IMG/VR virus record: IMGVR_UViG_3300032216_002167
Span: 1-37,048 of that record
Reading direction: 5' to 3' (one strand)
DNA from: a virus
Taxonomy: Duplodnaviria > Caudoviricetes
Length of the DNA stretch: 37,048 nt
Positions 5,229 to 23,547 of this stretch are shown piece after piece. How positions within the stretch are numbered: position 1 is the stretch's first letter; every line of letters begins with the position of its first letter. The notes below the pieces were generated by a model. That model did no database searches. It saw nothing but the letters and a program-made list of their open reading frames with translations, and had not been told where the DNA came from. Position numbers and translations under genes: made by a program.

Positions 5229-5584
5229 ACCATATCCATAGGGATGAATCTTGTACGGCTAGTTTTGCTAACGACATCCTTCCCTTGATCTGCGTTTTCT
5301 CTGATCATTCGGACTTTTTTGTAAACATTGTTCAGGTGTTTAGCAACGTCCATGGGGATTTCTACAGTCTCACCATGATAAATCTTCACGGTTCGAATGG
5401 GCTCTCCTGGATAGAATCTATAGCTAAAATCCAACCATCCACCTTGAGCATCTGTAAACTCAAAGATCCCTTTAATTAATTTCTCTCCAATCTTTTGGAG
5501 CTTTTTGATCTGCTCAGCAGATTTCGCTTTTGCTTCTGCTGACAGAGAGCAAATGTGTCTTGCTCTAGTTTCTTGTATGATCAT
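5225..5584 (-). CDS. Hypothetical head-region protein
   Basis: 119-aa ORF, ATGA-coupled within late operon. Confidence 0.6.
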   Translation of the reverse strand: MIIQETRARHICSLSAEAKAKSAEQIKKLQKIGEKLIKGIFEFTDAQGGWLDFSYRFYPGEPIRTVKIYHGETVEIPMDVAKHLNNVYKKVRMIRENADQGKDVVSKTSRTRFIPMDMV

Positions 5585-6114
5585 CTTCTACCTTTTTGTT
5601 TATGTATTGCCATATGGCATTTTCTACAGACCCAAATCACTTCTAGAGGTTTTTCATAATCTGCGTGGTGACCATCTAGCGCCTTTTCTTCATTACAAAT
5701 CTGACATCTATTAGGCTTTATAATATTCTCTCGCCTAAGAGCATCATTTAATTTCCTGTTCGCTATAATTTTTTTCTTGTCATATACATTTTGAAGATAA
5801 AACAACTTTGCTTGTTTTTGATCTTGAGAATTTCTGAAGGCTGCCCTTCTTAATTCCATTCTCTTTTCCCTATCCTCATCAGAAAGATTTTGTTGATAGA
5901 TTTTTACTTTCTCTATCCTTTTCTTCCTGTTTTTTTCGTATGACTTCTTTTCTTGTTCTCTTTTTCTTGTCAGTTTCTCAGGATCTTCTAAACGGCTTCT
6001 CCTTTTTAAATTCTGACAATCGCTACAGATCGTCTGATATCCAGAAGATCTATTATTTCTTTTCCAAAACTTTTCTAACTCTTTATCTACTTCGCATTCC
6101 AAACACTTTTTCAT
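5581..6114 (-). CDS. HNH-like endonuclease with N-terminal Zn finger
   Basis: CLEC..CSDC, basic helix, CQIC..DGHHADYEKPLEVIWVCRKCHMAIH. Confidence 0.75.
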   Translation of the reverse strand: MKKCLECEVDKELEKFWKRNNRSSGYQTICSDCQNLKRRSRLEDPEKLTRKREQEKKSYEKNRKKRIEKVKIYQQNLSDEDREKRMELRRAAFRNSQDQKQAKLFYLQNVYDKKKIIANRKLNDALRRENIIKPNRCQICNEEKALDGHHADYEKPLEVIWVCRKCHMAIHKQKGRR

Positions 6115-12807: not shown

Positions 12808-13176
12808 CTATTTTATAAATCTTTCTATTACGTATAGACCAGGAGCAACGCGTGATTTTATTGCGTTACAAGCACAGTTTGTCATAATTATAAAGCACAA
12901 ACCGCTGACTAAAAAGAAAACAACTGTCATTATCCAAACTTTTTCACAATTATCATACATACTTTTCTTTACGAAGGTCTTCGCCTTTTGAAAAGTAATA
13001 AATGATAAGCATAAAAACAAAGACATAACAATAAACATGGAAATAGATGATATCACATTGGAATAAAATCCATAATCAGCTACTTCTCTAACAAATCCTG
13101 GCACTTCATCGTTCACTACTGACCCCATATTTGAGAGCCATTCAACAATTTTAGAGTATAATTCTTCTTTTTCCAT
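12808..13176 (-). CDS. Two-TM membrane protein (accessory/moron-like)
   Basis: Two hydrophobic segments; TAATG-coupled to terL; flanked by 21-bp direct repeats. Confidence 0.65.
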   Translation of the reverse strand: MEKEELYSKIVEWLSNMGSVVNDEVPGFVREVADYGFYSNVISSISMFIVMSLFLCLSFITFQKAKTFVKKSMYDNCEKVWIMTVVFFLVSGLCFIIMTNCACNAIKSRVAPGLYVIERFIK

Positions 13177-13961
13177 TACTGCCCAAAAAAATTCCTAAGA
13201 GCTTTGTAATCATTTTCAAGAGATCCGCTTGCAGAAGTAACGCGCTTGACCCCAGCCGCCAGATATCTCATGGCATCGGAGCAATGAGAACAATCGTCGT
13301 GCACTGGCTCGCTCGTCCATCCACCGAAGGAGTTATTCCACTTCTTCTTATAATTCTCAAGCATTTTTAGTCCTTCGAAGCATTTCGTTTTGTCGAACCA
13401 GCACTTTGATAACGTTGTCTTAACGAGATTAACGCCCTGCAAAAAACTATGAGGCTCAAGAACGACACCAGTGAGGCCCAGCGGTCTAGCTTGATCGACG
13501 AAAGTAATGCCGCTGCGATCCCTAGCACCAGCATCGTGAGGCCATATGTGAATACCATAATTGTACCCCTTGGACTTAAGCAAAATGGAAACCTGATCTA
13601 ACGGTGTGTTATTTTTTTGCCAAAAGTCAATGATATTGATATCGTCTGATCTATTTACTTGAAAGAACCAGATAGCCATAGAGTCCGCCTGTCCTAGGTC
13701 CCAGGCAGTGTGACAGGGAATTGCTCTATCATAAGATACGTTTGTGATATGCCCGGTATCGTAAAGTTCCTTTATATTGCTGGCATACCAATATCCATCC
13801 TGTGAAGCGGAGAAGGCTTCTTCCGGAGTGGAAGGATACTCCCGGCTCATGAACTCGCCTTGAGTTTCCTTTTTTTTCGAGTACCACCACTTTTGCGGAT
13901 CTGTTAGTTTTACCCCATCTAGTTCTAACTTATCGAAATACTCCTTAAGATCTTGGTTCAT
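13176..13961 (-). CDS. terL: Terminase large subunit, C-terminal part (ATPase lid + RNase H-like nuclease)
   Basis: REYPSTPEEAF, TAWDLG..D, WPHDA, PVHDDCSHCSDAMRY. Confidence 0.9.
   Translation of the reverse strand: MNQDLKEYFDKLELDGVKLTDPQKWWYSKKKETQGEFMSREYPSTPEEAFSASQDGYWYASNIKELYDTGHITNVSYDRAIPCHTAWDLGQADSMAIWFFQVNRSDDINIIDFWQKNNTPLDQVSILLKSKGYNYGIHIWPHDAGARDRSGITFVDQARPLGLTGVVLEPHSFLQGVNLVKTTLSKCWFDKTKCFEGLKMLENYKKKWNNSFGGWTSEPVHDDCSHCSDAMRYLAAGVKRVTSASGSLENDYKALRNFFGQ
13182..13202 (-). repeat. terL 3' end (copy 1)
   Basis: GCTCTTAGGAATTTTTTTGGG encoding ALRNFFG. Confidence 0.85.
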
Positions 13962-14691
13962 TTACTGTATATCCGTGTTCTTTCAAAAAACTTATACATT
14001 CTTTAATCTGGTTCTCTGTTGAATATCTAAATTCCATAGCTTTAATGCTGTTTTTGCTAATCGTTATCCATTGACAATTTTCTGGACAATAATCTTTATT
14101 GGAATTAATTCGATCGATGCAAAGCTTGTCTTTTCTGCAACAATTTTTTTGGTACATCCAACCATTCTTTTCTGACCATTGAATGAATTTTATGGGAAAT
14201 CTCATCCATTCTTCGTAAACTTTTATTCCTTTTCCTCCGTACCATTTGAAAGACTTCTCTGAAGGATTGGTGCATCTATCAATCATCCTTTGTAAAACAT
14301 TTTTAAGGGGGTGTTTATTAGGGCCACAAGAACATTTTAGATATTTTCCTTTTCTTAAGTTAGATATTTCCACATCAAATTCTGTTCCGCAATCGCATTG
14401 AACCAAATAAGTTGTGGTATGTAATCTTACATCGTGTATTCGTTTTAAAACATTGATTGAACCTATTCTTTTCCCCGAATAATCAATAAAATTAACAGGA
14501 GTTTTACCTGTAAACATTCTTTTAGCGCAGATCGCCATCATCTTTTTTTTTAAACACCCACAACTTGAAGTGTTCCCAGATTTTACGTTCCACCAGTCTA
14601 ATCGCTTTTCAACCCCACAATCGCAACGACAAAGAATCTTATCGTTTTTGTCCCACTTCTCTTCTAATAATGTAAGATTTCCATATTTCAT
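13945..14691 (-). CDS. HNH-family homing endonuclease interrupting terL
   Basis: Two CxCDCG..SCG repeats; RCTNP..YGGKGIKV..W; IDRINSNKDYCPENCQW. Confidence 0.85.
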   Translation of the reverse strand: MKYGNLTLLEEKWDKNDKILCRCDCGVEKRLDWWNVKSGNTSSCGCLKKKMMAICAKRMFTGKTPVNFIDYSGKRIGSINVLKRIHDVRLHTTTYLVQCDCGTEFDVEISNLRKGKYLKCSCGPNKHPLKNVLQRMIDRCTNPSEKSFKWYGGKGIKVYEEWMRFPIKFIQWSEKNGWMYQKNCCRKDKLCIDRINSNKDYCPENCQWITISKNSIKAMEFRYSTENQIKECISFLKEHGYTVNEPRS

Positions 14692-14695
14692 GGAT

Positions 14696-15466
14696 TCATT
14701 CTAGCAGATCGCCATTTTTCCTTCCTAGGGAATACGAATTTTCCTTCCACCAGGGAAGAAAAAACGGCTTAAAATCCATATTTCCATATGGCTTTCCAGA
14801 AAGATGATGTTCCCAAGCCTTTTGCCACAGGTCGTGAAAGAACCCATCTTTTCCCTCGGCGGTGCTCTCGATAAATATATGCTGACCCACATGGACCGTG
14901 TTTAACGACCCAGAGATTATTTCATTAGCCCTTTCAGGGTAACGTGCACATATCTTCCCGAATTCTGATATATGTAAGTATTGAAGTGTCGACGAACGCA
15001 ACGATGTACCGACTCGGATAGTGCTTCCATGGGAAAAAGAGAGTTCCTTTGCTGAATCTCCAATGGGTCTAAATAGCTTTCGTAGGTTGGGATGCAGATT
15101 GTCAAATGCGAACTTAAGCTTGTCTTTGAAGATGTTGGAAGCGTCGTCCAAAGTTTGCGCGATAACACCACATTGTGTGTTTTCCTTCCACAGAACCTTA
15201 TCAAGAAGAAAGATACAGTAGAAGGTTGTAATCCCGAGCTGACGTGCTTTGAGCACGATGTTATATTCATGCATTTCCTCGTACAGTATTTTTTGTGCCC
15301 AGTTTAGACTAAATTTCTGCTTCTTCCCCTGTGAGTTCTTGATGAAGTACAGATTGTTCATCCGAAACGTCTGAGAGCTTAATTCCTCTCGAGAGTAAGG
15401 CAGATTCAAGTTTTTCGAATTTCTCTGATAAGCAGATGATAGTTCTTGCTTCAGATCCCTCATCAT
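14696..15466 (-). CDS. terL: Terminase large subunit, N-terminal ATPase part
   Basis: RMNNLY, NWAQ, Walker A LKARQLGITT, Walker B LHISEFG, coupling motif ESTA; start placed at SD-preceded ATG 15466. Confidence 0.9.
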   Translation of the reverse strand: MMRDLKQELSSAYQRNSKNLNLPYSREELSSQTFRMNNLYFIKNSQGKKQKFSLNWAQKILYEEMHEYNIVLKARQLGITTFYCIFLLDKVLWKENTQCGVIAQTLDDASNIFKDKLKFAFDNLHPNLRKLFRPIGDSAKELSFSHGSTIRVGTSLRSSTLQYLHISEFGKICARYPERANEIISGSLNTVHVGQHIFIESTAEGKDGFFHDLWQKAWEHHLSGKPYGNMDFKPFFLPWWKENSYSLGRKNGDLLE

Positions 15467-15785
15467 CGTCTCGCTTTCCTTGTCCAAGCCACTCCTTTCC
15501 AAGTAGTGTTAACATTTGATTGCTGCCGCGCATAGCCGACTGAAATTGCTTCAGCTTGACCATTCCCAATCCCCCTGGTCTCCTATTGGGGAGATACTCG
15601 GAGAAAGTAACCCCTTTTTCAATCGTAAATCTGTCATAAAAAGTGTCGGTACAAACTCCCAGTGCACCCGAAATTTCTCTTCCATTGCATCCAGACAGTA
15701 TCATATTTTCAACCAACTTCCAGTCGATTGGAATTACAGGCCTATACGGTTGTCTTTTCTTACCTGGATTTTTTTTTCTCGGCAC
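15309..15785 (-). CDS. terS: Terminase small subunit (HTH)
   Basis: IDW..V..GC...EI...LGV..DTFY; QF..AM.G...ML..LGKEWLGQ; directly upstream of terL. Confidence 0.7.
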   Translation of the reverse strand: MPRKKNPGKKRQPYRPVIPIDWKLVENMILSGCNGREISGALGVCTDTFYDRFTIEKGVTFSEYLPNRRPGGLGMVKLKQFQSAMRGSNQMLTLLGKEWLGQGKRDDDEGSEARTIICLSEKFEKLESALLSRGIKLSDVSDEQSVLHQELTGEEAEI

Positions 15786-15808: not shown

Positions 15809-16003
15809 TTATACTTCATCTGGTTCTGTTCTCTCTATATATCCGGGACTAAACGGATTTGCACAATACACCCTGCATAAAACTGGAATGTCTTGCGCCG
15901 CTCTAGATTGGACAATGATATCCGCTCCCTCTAGTATGTTCAAAGCGTCCGTCTTTGTTAACTCTACAATAACATATGTTGTGTTAGTCGCATTAACTAT
16001 CAT
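15809..16003 (-). CDS. Hypothetical protein
   Basis: ATGA-coupled to ParB-like gene. Confidence 0.45.
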   Translation of the reverse strand: MIVNATNTTYVIVELTKTDALNILEGADIIVQSRAAQDIPVLCRVYCANPFSPGYIERTEPDEV

Positions 16004-16479
16004 TTTTTCTTTTTCCTTATTTTCTGTCCACATGAACTACAAGTTTCTTCTTCAGGCTTTTCTTTTTCTCCTTCTTCCTCTTCTTCTAAAAGAATTCCCA
16101 GATCATCAGCTGTAAATCCCCATTCAGCCAAATCATGGAGATCGAACGAATTAGATAGAACATCCTCATCCCACTCGCCTTTGTTCTTGTTACTTCGTAT
16201 GAGATATTCTCTCATTTCTTCTAAAGATAGTTGTCGGCTAGGGACGCGCACATCTATTTCGTGCTTTCCCCATCCTAACTGAAGCATCGCCTTAACCCGC
16301 ATGTGTCCAGCAATGATAGTATTATCTGGCTGAATTGCCACTGTTTCGGCGTAATCGAATTTCTCTAGAGATCTCTTGAGATGAGCAAGTTGGTCTTTTT
16401 TGATCTGCCGTGGATTATCGGCATAGGGAATCAGAGATTTTACAATTCTCTTTTCATTGTGCCATGTAATTTTTTCCAT
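16000..16479 (-). CDS. ParB/Srx N-terminal domain protein
   Basis: LIPYADNPR..SLEKF..IIAGHMR..IRSNKNKGEWD; C-terminal CxxC. Confidence 0.85.
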   Translation of the reverse strand: MEKITWHNEKRIVKSLIPYADNPRQIKKDQLAHLKRSLEKFDYAETVAIQPDNTIIAGHMRVKAMLQLGWGKHEIDVRVPSRQLSLEEMREYLIRSNKNKGEWDEDVLSNSFDLHDLAEWGFTADDLGILLEEEEEGEKEKPEEETCSSCGQKIRKKKK

Positions 16480-17548: not shown

Positions 17549-18091
17549 TCATAATAATTTCTTCAAATCTAATCGACAGTGAGGATAGTTGGAAAGGGGT
17601 TCAAAAACGGTATTGTTCTTCTTTCGATTGATTTCTTTAGGAAGCCATTGAAGATTTTCTAAAGAATGTTGACCATGTTTAGAAATAGGAATGATATGAT
17701 CGATTTCATGTCCACTAGGACAATCCTCGTAGAACTTCTTCATTAATAATTTTTCATCTTCAGAACTTATTGCAGAATGAATTGAAGATCGTTTTTTGAT
17801 TCTGTATAGAGAACGTCCTATTTTTGTAGAAGATCGTGAATTTTCACGTTTACGAAATTCTTGATGAATCTTTTTCACAATTGGTTCATATTCTTGATCG
17901 ACACTTTTCATGTCTCCAAAAAAATTAAACCTTGGATCAGAAATTATTTTAAAATAAGGTTTTAAAGGAGAAAACTTTTCTTCAATTTTTGCTTTGAAAA
18001 AAGAAAGTTTTTCTTGTCTTTCTTTAAAGAGGCTTTTCTGTTCCTCGACCCAAAAACTCTTTATCACACACCGAAAATCCATAATGTGCAT
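17549..18091 (-). CDS. HNH endonuclease
   Basis: CPSGHEIDHIIPISKHGQHSLENLQWLPKEINRKKNN. Confidence 0.85.
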   Translation of the reverse strand: MHIMDFRCVIKSFWVEEQKSLFKERQEKLSFFKAKIEEKFSPLKPYFKIISDPRFNFFGDMKSVDQEYEPIVKKIHQEFRKRENSRSSTKIGRSLYRIKKRSSIHSAISSEDEKLLMKKFYEDCPSGHEIDHIIPISKHGQHSLENLQWLPKEINRKKNNTVFEPLSNYPHCRLDLKKLL

Positions 18092-19227: not shown

Positions 19228-19633
19228 TTATCTTCCTATATTCGTCTAATGTGTAAATTTTCATAAAAATACACCCTTTATCACGATATAGCTTTTCAGA
19301 CGTTATTTTTACAACATAACGATCATCTTTTATGACAATATTCTTTAAACAGTCTTCGTAGAATTTCTGAAGATTTGTGCAATCACAGTTTGTCGGTAGT
19401 ATTTCTCCGTCCAACATTCTTTGTTTGTTTTTTTTTGAAGTGGAATTTGGAATTGGAAACGCAAATATTAATTGGATGACTATATATCCATCCAGAACAT
19501 CGCCCCTGTAGGCGGACTTGATCTGCCACCGGGTAAAATCTCTTTCTTTTGCTCTGGGGTTGAATGCGCCCCTACTAGATATTCTCGCCGCTGTCCACGG
19601 GACAGGAGTGTTTGGGATTTCTAACTGAATCAT
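19202..19633 (-). CDS. rusA: RusA-like Holliday junction resolvase
   Basis: F.FPIP.STSKK, DCTNLQKFYEDCL..IVIKDDRYVV catalytic motif. Confidence 0.85.
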   Translation of the reverse strand: MIQLEIPNTPVPWTAARISSRGAFNPRAKERDFTRWQIKSAYRGDVLDGYIVIQLIFAFPIPNSTSKKNKQRMLDGEILPTNCDCTNLQKFYEDCLKNIVIKDDRYVVKITSEKLYRDKGCIFMKIYTLDEYRKINADFNRND

Positions 19634-19838
19634 TTTTGTTGTGTCTATGATAGTAGGACAAAAGGTCGTCTATCGTCACCTTCCCCTTTGTGTATGTCTC
19701 TATCATCCTACCGATTTCCAGTGAAGGCTTTCTTGTGCCGGCTATGTAATTACTGATTGCGCCGGGAGAGATCCCAAGGGAATTGGCGAATTCTTTCTGA
19801 TCAAAGTTCCTGCTTTCAATAAATAACTTCAAGTCCAT
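19575..19838 (-). CDS. Cro/XRE-family HTH regulator
   Basis: QKEFANSLGISPGAISNYIAGTRKPS..IE..TKGKVT..DL. Confidence 0.85.
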   Translation of the reverse strand: MDLKLFIESRNFDQKEFANSLGISPGAISNYIAGTRKPSLEIGRMIETYTKGKVTIDDLLSYYHRHNKNDSVRNPKHSCPVDSGENI

Positions 19839-19921
19839 ATTACGCCTATTTTTATGAGCGTATCTTAACAAATGTTAACAATTTTACCAGAACACAATCT
19901 TTATTTTAATTCACAAACGTG

Positions 19922-19951
19922 TTGCAAAAAACAAATCCACGCAGATATACT
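19922..19951 (+). promoter_or_regulatory. Rightward early promoter
   Basis: TTGCAA-18 nt-TATACT in the divergent intergenic region. Confidence 0.6.
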
Positions 19952-20072
19952 GTGAATCGTTTTAGGAAAAACTCATGGAGCTTTAGTAAGATTCTGTGAA
20001 TACGTGAAAGTGGCTCCTGCTGAGTCTAGCAACAGGAGCCATGGAATACCAACGACAAACATAAGGTGTGTT

Positions 20073-20261
20073 ATGTATGACGGGAAAGATCGTAAAACAA
20101 ATTTCGATTTGTGTACACAAAAAGAAATTAAATTCCAGATTGACGAAGCATCCTATCACCTGGAAGGACTTCGTCTTGCCCTAAAAGAAGCCTCCTACCA
20201 CTACAAAAAATCTATCTATCACGATTTGTTACTGCAAGAAATAAAAGAAAAAATTAAATAG
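20073..20261 (+). CDS. Hypothetical early protein
   Basis: SD AAGGTG before ATG 20073. Confidence 0.5.
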   Translation: MYDGKDRKTNFDLCTQKEIKFQIDEASYHLEGLRLALKEASYHYKKSIYHDLLLQEIKEKIK

Positions 20262-20267
20262 GTGTGT

Positions 20268-20471
20268 ATGAATTGGGAATATGAGCCTGAACCAGATGAG
20301 ATAAAAGAATGGGAAGATGAGATGAAGGCGTCTTATCTCGCCTATCTAGTGTTTTGCAAACACGACGATGACCACATTTCATTTTATGATTTCAGAAAAC
20401 AAGCTTTAAAAGATCTAGAAAGCCACTTCGATGGACTGGACGAACAAGACTATAGGGAGATGATATTATGA
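20268..20471 (+). CDS. Small acidic hypothetical protein
   Basis: SD AGGTG; ATGA-coupled to bet. Confidence 0.55.
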   Translation: MNWEYEPEPDEIKEWEDEMKASYLAYLVFCKHDDDHISFYDFRKQALKDLESHFDGLDEQDYREMIL

Positions 20472-21253
20472 GCATTTCAAATGTACCAAACGGTCAGATC
20501 CAGGTATTTGACATAGAATCTAAAAAGGACCTTCTCAAGAGAACCATATGCAAAGGAAGTAGCGACGAAGAGTTTGAGCTTTTCATGATGGCTTGCAAGA
20601 GAACTGGCCTAGATCCTTTTATGAAGCAAATTTATGCAGTCAAAAGATGGTCTAGTTCAGACAAGAAAGAAGTCATGTCGATGCAAACATCCATTGACGG
20701 ATTTAGACTCATTGCCGAAAGGACTGGAAACTATGCGCCAGGAAGAGAGACCACATTTTGCTATGATGAAACAAAGCAGCTGATATCAGCGACCTCGTAT
20801 GTGAAAAAAAGAACCCACGACGGAACTTGGCATGAAATTGGATCTAGTGCCTACTTTGAAGAATACGCTCAAAGGACGAAAGATGGAAATGTGACTCAGT
20901 TTTGGAAGAAAATGCCACACGTCATGCTAGCCAAGTGCGCCGAGTCACTCGCACTAAGAAAAGCATTCCCTGCTGACCTTTCCGGAATATACACAGCGGA
21001 AGAAATGACCCAGTCTGACCCCGTATCCGAGCAAAAAGAGCTTACAGAGGAGCAATGTGCAAGAATCGACTCATTGATGGTTCAAGTACAAGACGAAGAG
21101 TATCTTGATAAGCTAGAAAAACACCTGAACGTTTCCAGTATCTATAATATTGCCCCTAGGGATTTTGAAAGAACAATACGATCTCTGGAAAAAAGAGCCT
21201 CCTCAAACCAAGAAAAAAAGGGAACATTAGATGGATCAGCAAGCGTGGCTTGA
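20468..21253 (+). CDS. bet: Phage recombination protein Bet/RecT (ssDNA annealing)
   Basis: GLDPFMKQIYAVKR, TSIDGFRLIAERTG, WKKMPHVMLAKCAESLALRKAFP. Confidence 0.92.
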   Translation: MSISNVPNGQIQVFDIESKKDLLKRTICKGSSDEEFELFMMACKRTGLDPFMKQIYAVKRWSSSDKKEVMSMQTSIDGFRLIAERTGNYAPGRETTFCYDETKQLISATSYVKKRTHDGTWHEIGSSAYFEEYAQRTKDGNVTQFWKKMPHVMLAKCAESLALRKAFPADLSGIYTAEEMTQSDPVSEQKELTEEQCARIDSLMVQVQDEEYLDKLEKHLNVSSIYNIAPRDFERTIRSLEKRASSNQEKKGTLDGSASVA

Positions 21254-22112
21254 GTGGAGAAGAAGCGGGATAGGATCATCTGACGCTCCTATAATAATGG
21301 GAGTTTCTCCCTGGAGAACGCCACTAGAACTGTGGGAAGAAAAGGTTTTTGGATACAAAGAAATGAAAGAAAACCCCGCCATGACGCGGGGGAAGGAACT
21401 TGAGGAGGTTGCAAGAAGAGACTTCGAGCTTCTCATGGACATAAGCCTGTTCCCCTCTAACATAGTACACGAAGAGCATGAATGGATAAGGGCCTCTCTC
21501 GATGGAATAGATATAGACGGAAAGGTGATGGTAGAAATCAAGTGGCCCAATAGAGAAGACCATGAATTGGCCAAGAATGGCAATGTTCCAGAAAAATACA
21601 CCCCACAAGTTCAGCACCAGCTATTTGTTAAGAATTTAGATGGAATGTTTTATTACAGCTGCCACGGATCTGACAGACAGGTAGTGGAGGTTGAGAGAAA
21701 CGAAGACTACATAAAAGAAATGATGGAAAGACACATCTCCTTCTGGGACAGAGTCGTTAAAAAGACGCCACCAGAACTAACAGACAGGGACCACATTTGT
21801 TTTGAAGGGGACGACCGATGGATTCAGCTTGCCAGTGAATGGAAAGAATCAAAGCATGAGCTTGAAAAACTAACATCTTTGGTTGAAGAATTTAGAAAAG
21901 AAATGATCGAATATTCACAAAGCAGAAATGCGAAAGGTTGTGGAGTAAAGATGAGCAAGTCTATATGTCCGGGAGCCGTAGACCACAAAAGAGCCCTGGA
22001 TGACTACGAAGAAAAGATAAAGGCACTTTATCCCAACATAGATCTGCCCCCCTTGGACTTGGAACTATATAGGAAAGAGCCGTTTACTAGGTGGTCGATT
22101 CGTAAAGACTAA
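21231..22112 (+). CDS. YqaJ/lambda-exonuclease family protein
   Basis: WLEWRRSGIGSSD..IMGVSPWRTPLELW, ASLDG..EIK, QVQHQL. Confidence 0.92.
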   Translation: MDQQAWLEWRRSGIGSSDAPIIMGVSPWRTPLELWEEKVFGYKEMKENPAMTRGKELEEVARRDFELLMDISLFPSNIVHEEHEWIRASLDGIDIDGKVMVEIKWPNREDHELAKNGNVPEKYTPQVQHQLFVKNLDGMFYYSCHGSDRQVVEVERNEDYIKEMMERHISFWDRVVKKTPPELTDRDHICFEGDDRWIQLASEWKESKHELEKLTSLVEEFRKEMIEYSQSRNAKGCGVKMSKSICPGAVDHKRALDDYEEKIKALYPNIDLPPLDLELYRKEPFTRWSIRKD

Positions 22113-22329
22113 AAACGACCCCGCCTTCTCTTGGAACGGTTACTTTTTCCTCGACAAGACGGTCTAGCTTTTTGCTTAGCTCCAGGAGGATATACTCAAC
22201 CTCGTTGTATCTAGCAAAGAGACCACGGATTGAGTTGGTAGTCTTTTTTTTAAATTCCTCATGCTCTAAAGCCTGCAATTGAACTTTTTCGTTTATAAAA
22301 AGATCTAGTTGGATGGGTTTTGCCGACAT
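22087..22329 (-). CDS. Small coiled-coil protein with QLDLF clamp-binding motif
   Basis: MSAKPIQLDLF; SD GAGG. Confidence 0.6.
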   Translation of the reverse strand: MSAKPIQLDLFINEKVQLQALEHEEFKKKTTNSIRGLFARYNEVEYILLELSKKLDRLVEEKVTVPREGGVVFSLYESTT

Positions 22330-22399
22330 AATGACCTCATACTTACAGAATATTAGAATTATATTCCTAAAGAGAAAAACCCTATCAGATTTTTATAAT

Positions 22400-22428
22400 T
22401 TGATGCAAATGGTTTTTTTTTATAGCCT
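22400..22428 (+). promoter_or_regulatory. Promoter of rep leader
   Basis: TTGATG-17 nt-TAGCCT; predicted +1 near 22435. Confidence 0.5.
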
Positions 22429-22433
22429 TAGGT

Positions 22434-22466
22434 AAAAAAAAGAGCCCCGAGTATTATTCGGGGCCC
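22434..22466 (-). terminator. Intrinsic terminator on minus strand
   Basis: GCCCCGA-7 nt-TCGGGGC followed by TCTTTTTTTT on the minus strand. Confidence 0.85.
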
Positions 22467-22528
22467 AACTTTGGAGCGCCAGCTGAAGACTGGACTTGAT
22501 AAAAACCACTATCGTTCTCTAAGGAACG
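22434..22528 (-). ncRNA. Predicted ~95-nt antisense (countertranscript) RNA to rep leader
   Basis: Promoter TTGCGA (22562-22557)-16 nt-TAGAAT (22540-22535) plus terminator at 22434-22466, no evident ORF between. Confidence 0.6.
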
Positions 22529-22632
22529 TCATCGATTCTACTGATTGATGATTTAATCGCAAGATAAAATAGTCTGGTTTTTTTTAAAAGTCTTTTTCAA
22601 CGCCTGGCGCTCCTACAATTAAAATAAGGAGT
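22473..22632 (+). promoter_or_regulatory. Structured rep 5' UTR with alternative anti-SD pairing
   Basis: GGAGCGCCAG (22473-82)/CTGGCGCTCC (22604-13) closing stem; CTCCT (22610-14) is also complementary to SD AGGAG (22627-31). Confidence 0.7.
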
Positions 22633-22638
22633 TGTCCA

Positions 22639-23547
22639 ATGTCAATCGTTCGCACCGTACACAACAAAGAAAATCCATTTGTCCAAATCAACAAAAAGGC
22701 TCTCTGGGACAAAGAATTGTCTTTAGAGGCTGTTGGTTTATGGGCGCGATTATTATCCCGACCAGATGACTGGATCGTCAGAGTCAATGAAATCTCTAAG
22801 TCCTGCAAGTGCGGCAAGGACAGAATATTTAGAATATTAAATGAATTAATTGATAAAGGGTATGCTTTTAGGAGGCAAGTGAAAATCAATGGAAGATTTT
22901 CTTGTCTAGAAACCTATGTGTTTGAATTTAAGATGACTAAGGATGAGATTAAAGAAATGTTTCCGGAACGGGATTTTCCAGTTACGGAACCCTCGATCAC
23001 GGAGATCACCCCCCCTACTAATATAGACTCTACTAATCCTTCTTCACTACGTTCAGAAGTAAAAAGAAGAAAGAATAAGAAAGCGCCCGCGGCGCCTCCC
23101 ATTCTCCTAAATCAAGAAACCAAGAAATTCGAAGGGATAACTCCCGAAGACATAAAAAGATGGCAAGATACCTTTCCGGCCGTAAACGTTCGTAAAGAGT
23201 TACAGGAATGCCTACTTTGGGCTTTAAGAACCTCAAGAACGAACTACCGAGGGTCGATTGACGCTTGGATGCGTAATGTGAACACAACCCACACAACGCC
23301 GTTTAAAGAAGAAATAAGGCCATCCGAGGTTGTCCCCGAGGGAGAAGTCTCTAAAAACAAAAAACAAGCCGCTGTTTGGGAGAAATGTTATGTCCAAACC
23401 CAACACACTGCTATTTATGCCTTTCCAGACAAAATTACATTCGTACTGCCTAACAACGAGACCTTTTCAGTAGAATATTCCCATGTCAACAAGGAGTTTT
23501 TAAAATTATGTATACCAGCAATAAAGAGAATGAATCTTCCGTTTTAG
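22639..23547 (+). CDS. Replication initiator (N-terminal winged HTH, replisome-organiser type)
   Basis: HNKENPFVQI..DKELSLEAVGL..LLSRPDDW..GKD..LNELIDKGY; strong SD TAAGGAG. Confidence 0.75.
   Translation: MSIVRTVHNKENPFVQINKKALWDKELSLEAVGLWARLLSRPDDWIVRVNEISKSCKCGKDRIFRILNELIDKGYAFRRQVKINGRFSCLETYVFEFKMTKDEIKEMFPERDFPVTEPSITEITPPTNIDSTNPSSLRSEVKRRKNKKAPAAPPILLNQETKKFEGITPEDIKRWQDTFPAVNVRKELQECLLWALRTSRTNYRGSIDAWMRNVNTTHTTPFKEEIRPSEVVPEGEVSKNKKQAAVWEKCYVQTQHTAIYAFPDKITFVLPNNETFSVEYSHVNKEFLKLCIPAIKRMNLPF
22960..23004 (+). repeat. Three degenerate 15-bp repeats, possible iterons/origin
   Basis: TTTCCGGAACGGGAT/TTTCCAGTTACGGAA/CCCTCGATCACGGAG in the rep linker. Confidence 0.4.

Follow-up and report, generated by a model that had tools for sequence, protein, structure and literature searches.

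The window, that is, the whole stretch of DNA analysed here, is a 37,048-base virus record (Caudoviricetes, IMGVR_UViG_3300032216_002167) that CheckV places at 98% completeness, and it encodes a portal, terminase pieces, an N4-gp56-type major capsid, RecT/Bet, YqaJ and RusA. Late genes on the minus strand converge on the block that holds rep, a plus-strand gene (22639-23547) for a winged-HTH protein of 302 amino acids. This protein matches PHROG 186 (E 9.6e-14) and PHROG 4707 (E 3.7e-11), both DnaD-like or replication-initiation PHROGs, as well as Pfam HTH_36 (E 2.2e-6), and PF04492 (phage O domain) is present in homologues that share its C-terminal half. Because of these matches, the product is likely an O/DnaD-like replication initiator. 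Upstream of rep lies a non-coding gap of 309 nt, and the nearest ORF beyond it is divergent (22087-22329, minus strand, 80 amino acids), with no function assigned from the ORF list and PHROG/Pfam searches. This ORF has its own Shine-Dalgarno (SD) sequence and is oriented against the recombination-replication block, and a short divergent ORF was seen by eye at the same place in several relatives.

Elsewhere in the window, the gene for the terminase large subunit is split over two ORFs (13176-15502) with an HNH endonuclease in between, an arrangement that suggests a group I intron or an insertion. More endonuclease genes lie nearby (5581-6114 and 17549-18091), and the capsid gene is in two pieces in several relatives.

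Anatomy and modelling of the rep leader

A predicted rep promoter (TTGATG-17-TAGCCT; plus strand, 22400-22428, from motif scoring) places the transcription start at ~22435 and gives a leader of ~204 nt (22435-22638, plus strand), which is predicted to fold into a hairpin and a long rod. On the minus strand, promoter scoring predicts an antisense promoter (TTGCGA-16-TAGAAT; 22535-22562) at the apex of the rod, and the terminator scanner recovered the U-tailed intrinsic terminator that had been claimed for this strand (22434-22466; stem 22466-22442, eight U at 22434-22441). The promoter and terminator positions, with folding, define a predicted antisense RNA of ~95 nt and three hairpins (22434-22528, minus strand), at -111 to -205 relative to the rep start, with the divergent ORF downstream of its terminator. 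The 5' closing arm of the rod, GGAGCGCCAG (22473-22482), acts as the anti-anti-SD in the blocking model described below, and the 3' arm, CTGGCGCTCC (22604-22614), holds the anti-SD CTCCT (22610-22614); the SD AGGAG follows at 22627-22631 and the ATG at 22639. These motifs all lie where the preliminary description had put them, including TTGATG at 22400, TAGCCT at 22423 and, on the minus strand, TTGCGA at 22562 and TAGAAT at 22540.

The sense promoter scores 9.1 vs 3.1 in a control stretch and has look-alikes in loci L084 and L087; in the 2.5-kb region it falls below the threshold of the promoter scanner. Promoter-like sites occur here about as often as expected by chance (6 vs 5.1), as do terminator-like sites (4 vs 2.7), and the antisense promoter of the window taken alone reaches p=0.07 against shuffles. 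The leader does fold into the rod that had been described, at -70.7 kcal/mol (z -5.41; 0/200 shuffles as good). G-U pairs had also been said to favour the plus strand, which holds in the window (5 G-U pairs; -70.7 vs -63.4) and not across relatives, only 9/25 of which have the more stable fold on the plus strand. Contigs from the sequencing run that cover the window are short, and over 22370-22539 they show no differences, so that they are uninformative on expression and covariation. No clear iterons were found, and no conserved leader peptide was seen by eye in the leaders.

The central claim, that the antisense RNA frees CTCCT to pair with the SD, was reproduced in the folding model, where the predicted probability of CUCCU:AGGAG pairing goes from 0.00 in the free leader to 0.99 with the antisense span blocked. 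On the same blocking, the cost of opening the SD rises from 2.4 to 5.8 kcal/mol, a shift reached by 1/150 shuffles. Blocking 22473-22482 alone flips the modelled switch, and blocking 22435-22466 or 22484-22528 has no effect; since blocking these ten bases suffices, they are the predicted trigger. The free-state SD is partly open in the model (unpaired 0.93, 0.24, 0.12, 0.19 and 0.54 along the motif), and cofolding of the leader with the antisense RNA predicts a full 95-bp duplex. The OFF hairpin has no U-tract, CAAUG coming after it, and the scanner found no plus-strand terminator in the leader.

Initiator homologues, a sister sub-family and clade genomes

Initiator scans yielded 80 viral and 80 metagenome loci, which together with the window gave 161 with a start; 118 non-redundant homologues had 300 nt upstream, and the 51 scoring at least 75 bits are called close homologues here. 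With a strict terminator rule adopted in place of a lenient one, a reverse terminator was found before the initiator in 34/51 close homologues (window included) and was missing in 17/51. The comparison rates are 7/51 for the sense strand, 15/67 for the reverse strand of distant homologues and 9/194 for control genes (further genes from those loci and from the window). When only gaps of at least 100 nt are counted, the reverse terminator precedes 24/33 initiator homologues vs 2/57 controls. In the 34 terminator-bearing loci the best promoter score is higher on the antisense than on the sense strand (7.9 vs 6.0, Wilcoxon p 1.7e-5, using approximate score weights); taken one at a time, only 9/34 of these antisense promoters pass p 0.05. 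The window's own family shows no enrichment of a sense promoter just upstream (p 0.54) or of YUNR loops (10/34 vs 8.8).

The shift test, which blocks the 5' half of the leader and counts a rise of at least 3 kcal/mol in SD opening cost, was run on 33 of these 34 loci. A shift of this size was found in 14/24 leaders of at least 130 nt, was missing in the other 10/24, and occurred in 0/9 shorter leaders. Fold z-scores of -2 or lower were obtained for 22/24 long leaders (20 shuffles each). A clean three-part switch was seen in 12/25 long leaders, and in 11/12 of them the antisense start, which was predicted separately, falls between the arms.

The layout is conserved among relatives without sequence identity. 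The leaders of the homologues could not be aligned to the window leader, and the only match to it among them is 52 nt over the sense promoter of L084. Searching 43 capsid-related records with the leader DNA turned up chance-level matches only; scans of viral contigs with a single protein or with a C-terminal alignment returned no matches, and neither did a rep scan of genome contigs. A short form of the layout (A-run, GC hairpin, 40-110 nt, start codon) stands before some non-initiator phage genes, for example in L085 (gene at 1964), L014 (1283), L136 (1489) and L140 (4065), and such short forms may belong to a broader class of small antisense units. Upstream of one initiator gene (L291:14800-15133, genome G019), three A-run and hairpin units stand in tandem, for which no switch was predicted with the start used.

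Covariation could be assessed in a sister sub-family, A6, which is drawn from one initiator family (38 loci, 33 inspected) and has alignable leaders of ~120-135 nt. The alignment holds 17 leaders that are 48-76% identical, 16 picked by eye plus that of G045, which has a different initiator; rows and helices were chosen by eye. Its invariant columns comprise the sense extended -10, the terminator, and the antisense -10 and -35, which lie on either side of the anti-SD; the antisense elements appear as invariant A..TA and CAA columns, with TGn in 15/17 leaders, and the distance between reverse promoter and terminator stays at 70-79 nt in 17/17. The ON and OFF helices are mutually exclusive, the anti-SD columns being common to both. 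The ON helix is 79.8% paired with 16 double changes and the OFF helix 83.7% paired with 17, and in each case 0/500 shuffles reach the score or the cells; the number of pairs with a double change is less distinctive, its observed value being reached by 35/500 and 120/500 shuffles. U/C changes at column 143 have A/G counterparts both at column 91 and at column 174. In both helices, pairing is better between cognate arms than between swapped ones (permutation p 5e-5, for related sequences and with no phylogeny correction). A shift of at least 3 was found in 12/17 A6 leaders, and YUNR is enriched in A6 only (16/17 vs 8.9, again among related sequences). RNAalifold recovered the terminator and only 4 ON-helix pairs, a partial recovery that is expected because the structures compete.

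The preliminary description had named covariation among related leaders as a check. Both alternative helices show it in A6, and the window's own leader is not alignable to that sub-family (nhmmer against the A6 profile, no match at E up to 1). As the window leader is not in A6, the covariation is indirect for the window and bears on the logic of the clade, not on these bases. The reading of the locus as an antisense unit with an anti-SD switch is supported by the modelling, the enrichment at initiator genes and the covariation in the sister sub-family.

Many close phages came up in a capsid scan, with identities of 83-93% for the best of them. The clade set comprised 20 records (17 by capsid, 3 by rep) and the window, or 21 genomes, to which we applied thresholds fixed earlier on the initiator family. 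Among 850 SD-bearing genes, a reverse terminator precedes 34 and a shift occurs at only 6. The six shifting genes are initiator-like, ~300 amino acids long, and belong to unrelated families with unrelated N-termini; four match initiator PHROGs (the window rep and three more; one weakly, E 3e-4), and the remaining two are unannotated (303 and 313 amino acids). Under a relaxed terminator rule, 10/17 hand-picked initiator candidates shift by at least 2.9 (two with starts adjusted by eye), and 1 further hand-picked candidate does so in a separate run. In one of the 17 the layout precedes a short ORF upstream (2.8), and 5 were not picked up by the script. A short co-oriented ORF or coding-like stretch precedes the initiator in G001, G033, G012 and G023, and the switch layout stands before that first short ORF in G033 (computed) and G001 (by eye).

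Proposed mechanism, precedents and alternatives

We consider it probable that the rep leader is a two-state switch in which a ~95-nt cis antisense RNA limits the initiator by copy number through translational attenuation of the pSK41 RNAI kind. In the leader alone, the 5' arm at 22473-22482 would hold the anti-SD, and the ribosome site would be cheap to open. The antisense RNA would start at the rod apex, end at the reverse terminator and cover the 5' arm; the freed CUCCU would then pair with AGGAG and Rep translation would fall, so that synthesis of the initiator would be limited in proportion to genome copy number. That the RNA is expressed and represses rep, and that it sets copy number while the phage is in a non-integrating form (plasmid-like or carrier), we infer.

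The precedents named earlier were pSK41 RNAI, repABC ctRNA and pT181 RNAI; we compared the leader with these and with phage systems as described in the cited accounts. The best fit is pSK41 RNAI, an 83-nt RNA read from the opposite strand of the rep leader ~100 nt ahead of the start, which on binding gives rise to a stem-loop that occludes the ribosome site and does not stop transcription (PMC5703833). The predicted ~95-nt counter-transcript here likewise lies in the rep leader, ~100 nt from the start (-111 to -205), and in silico its binding would also close the ribosome site in a hairpin and form no terminator. The setting differs in that the genome is that of a tailed phage (portal, N4-gp56-type capsid) and not a staphylococcal plasmid, and the protein is an O/DnaD-like HTH_36 protein and not a RepA_N initiator. 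The repABC and pT181 precedents did not hold to the same degree, as they end in transcription termination, for which the OFF hairpin here lacks a U-tract. In repABC (RepE/incA), the leader forms a single large stem-loop with an accessible SD, and the counter-transcript refolds it into a Rho-independent terminator (PMC6090056); the leader here is likewise predicted to form a large stem-loop that the counter-transcript would refold, but it lacks that U-tract and no repA or repB lies upstream. With pT181 RNAI and pIP501 RNAIII, which act by transcriptional attenuation (PMC5703833), it shares a pre-emptor logic in which the antisense RNA frees one arm for a downstream hairpin, whereas the OFF state here forms no intrinsic terminator upstream of rep.

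Among phages, the known analogue of the layout is lambda OOP, which the preliminary description did not mention: a 77-nt RNA in the order tO-oop-pO that overlaps the end of the cII coding sequence and targets cII (PMC3349717). Both are self-terminating antisense units directly upstream of the O-like initiator of a tailed phage, here by prediction, but the target here is a non-coding leader and no cII-like 3' end is overlapped. Extrachromosomal mycobacterial prophages have RNA-based origins, where replication is started by RNAs and not by a Rep (PMC7157519); the parallel with this locus lies in the use of RNA by the replication systems of non-integrating prophages, whereas the RNA here would control a Rep and not replace one. 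Rfam at gathering score gave 0 matches in the window and 11 further loci, lambda's included, and at E up to 10 only sub-threshold matches. In literature searched mostly outside subscription journals, we found no report of an antisense anti-SD switch on the O-like initiator of a tailed phage. The mechanism is established for plasmids, and the locus is most likely a pSK41-type variant of it on a tailed-phage O-like initiator.

An antisense RNA placed here might instead act mainly through RNase III duplex decay, as lambda OOP does, or through interference between convergent promoters, the anti-SD pairing being secondary. This we regard as unlikely. The order of terminator, RNA, promoter and initiator is the same as in lambda tO-oop-pO-O (J02459; PMC3349717), a full 95-bp duplex is predicted and the two promoters face each other, yet duplex decay needs neither the anti-SD nor the anti-anti-SD, both of which covary in A6, and the lambda O leader has no anti-SD shift in the same test (3.6 to 2.5-3.0), a result that also led us to reject identity with OOP. 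The switch could also be the one proposed and differ in purpose, serving timing in a purely lytic cycle or the exclusion of a superinfecting like phage, to which we give a similarly small probability. The window genome has no ParA, resolvase or CI-type repressor, and leaders cannot be aligned even where capsids are 83-93% identical, as expected for specificity groups; against this, recombinases or ParA in some of 34 relatives suggest persistence in the cell for some of them, and negative control of an initiator would be of little obvious use in strict lysis.

Finally, there might be no regulatory RNA, with the terminator only insulating the divergent gene and promoter from read-through and the rod being self-contained, as a ligand or temperature switch, an mRNA stabiliser or a DNA-level element. 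The divergent ORF (22329-22087) just beyond the terminator, the minus-strand late genes that converge on the rep block, and a strand asymmetry of the fold that is not seen family-wide all fit this view. It nevertheless seems very improbable in any of these forms, given that 17/17 A6 leaders have a reverse promoter at 70-79 nt from the terminator, its -10 and -35 columns invariant, and that the predicted antisense start tracks the rod interior; a ligand switch in particular is disfavoured because it would conserve sequence and these leaders do not.

Lifestyle, host and wider meaning of the proposed switch

We found no integrase, serine recombinase, S24/CI-type repressor, ParA or resolvase in the window genome (98% complete). 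Phage-plasmid criteria call for the lack of an integrase, which is seen here, and for partition or multimer-resolution genes, which are not; a ParB-like gene lies near the terminase (16000-16479). In 34 genomes at least 90% complete, a tyrosine recombinase match occurs in 3/34 (one strong), a large serine recombinase domain in 3/34, ParA in 5/34 and an S24 repressor in 0/34. A non-integrating state of the window phage is plausible.

The switch proposed above for the window may be central to a large uncultured clade of 35-41 kb tailed phages, possibly of environmental chlamydiae, that persist as plasmids without integrase or CI repressor. This reading, which we put forward tentatively and as a whole, would also have a rapidly diverging switch set copy number, lysogeny and incompatibility, and be kept while the initiator is swapped among unrelated families. 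If the whole clade uses the switch, it would mark plasmid-like persistence that lifestyle calls based on integrase or ParA miss, and it might lead to tailed phages that infect environmental chlamydiae. The dozens of leaders that differ in sequence and follow one logic are, in addition, candidate orthogonal antisense switches.

The best plasmid match of the window Bet (60% identical) is on the Simkania negevensis plasmid pSn, a weak hint that the host is possibly an environmental chlamydia. Chlamydial plasmids with phage genes have been described (PMC7846284). On pSn (L371:7150-8576), a divergent HTH gene and the Bet gene are arranged as at 19575-21253 of the window, and the segment is possibly a remnant of a phage of this clade. 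Genome bins were not used for host assignment, since the 7 capsid-bearing contigs fall in bins of five unrelated groups and are likely mis-binned. In one 360-kb genome contig (L286), phage DNA of ~0.4 GC is joined to DNA of ~0.6 GC, a jump that may reflect either an integration or an assembly chimera.
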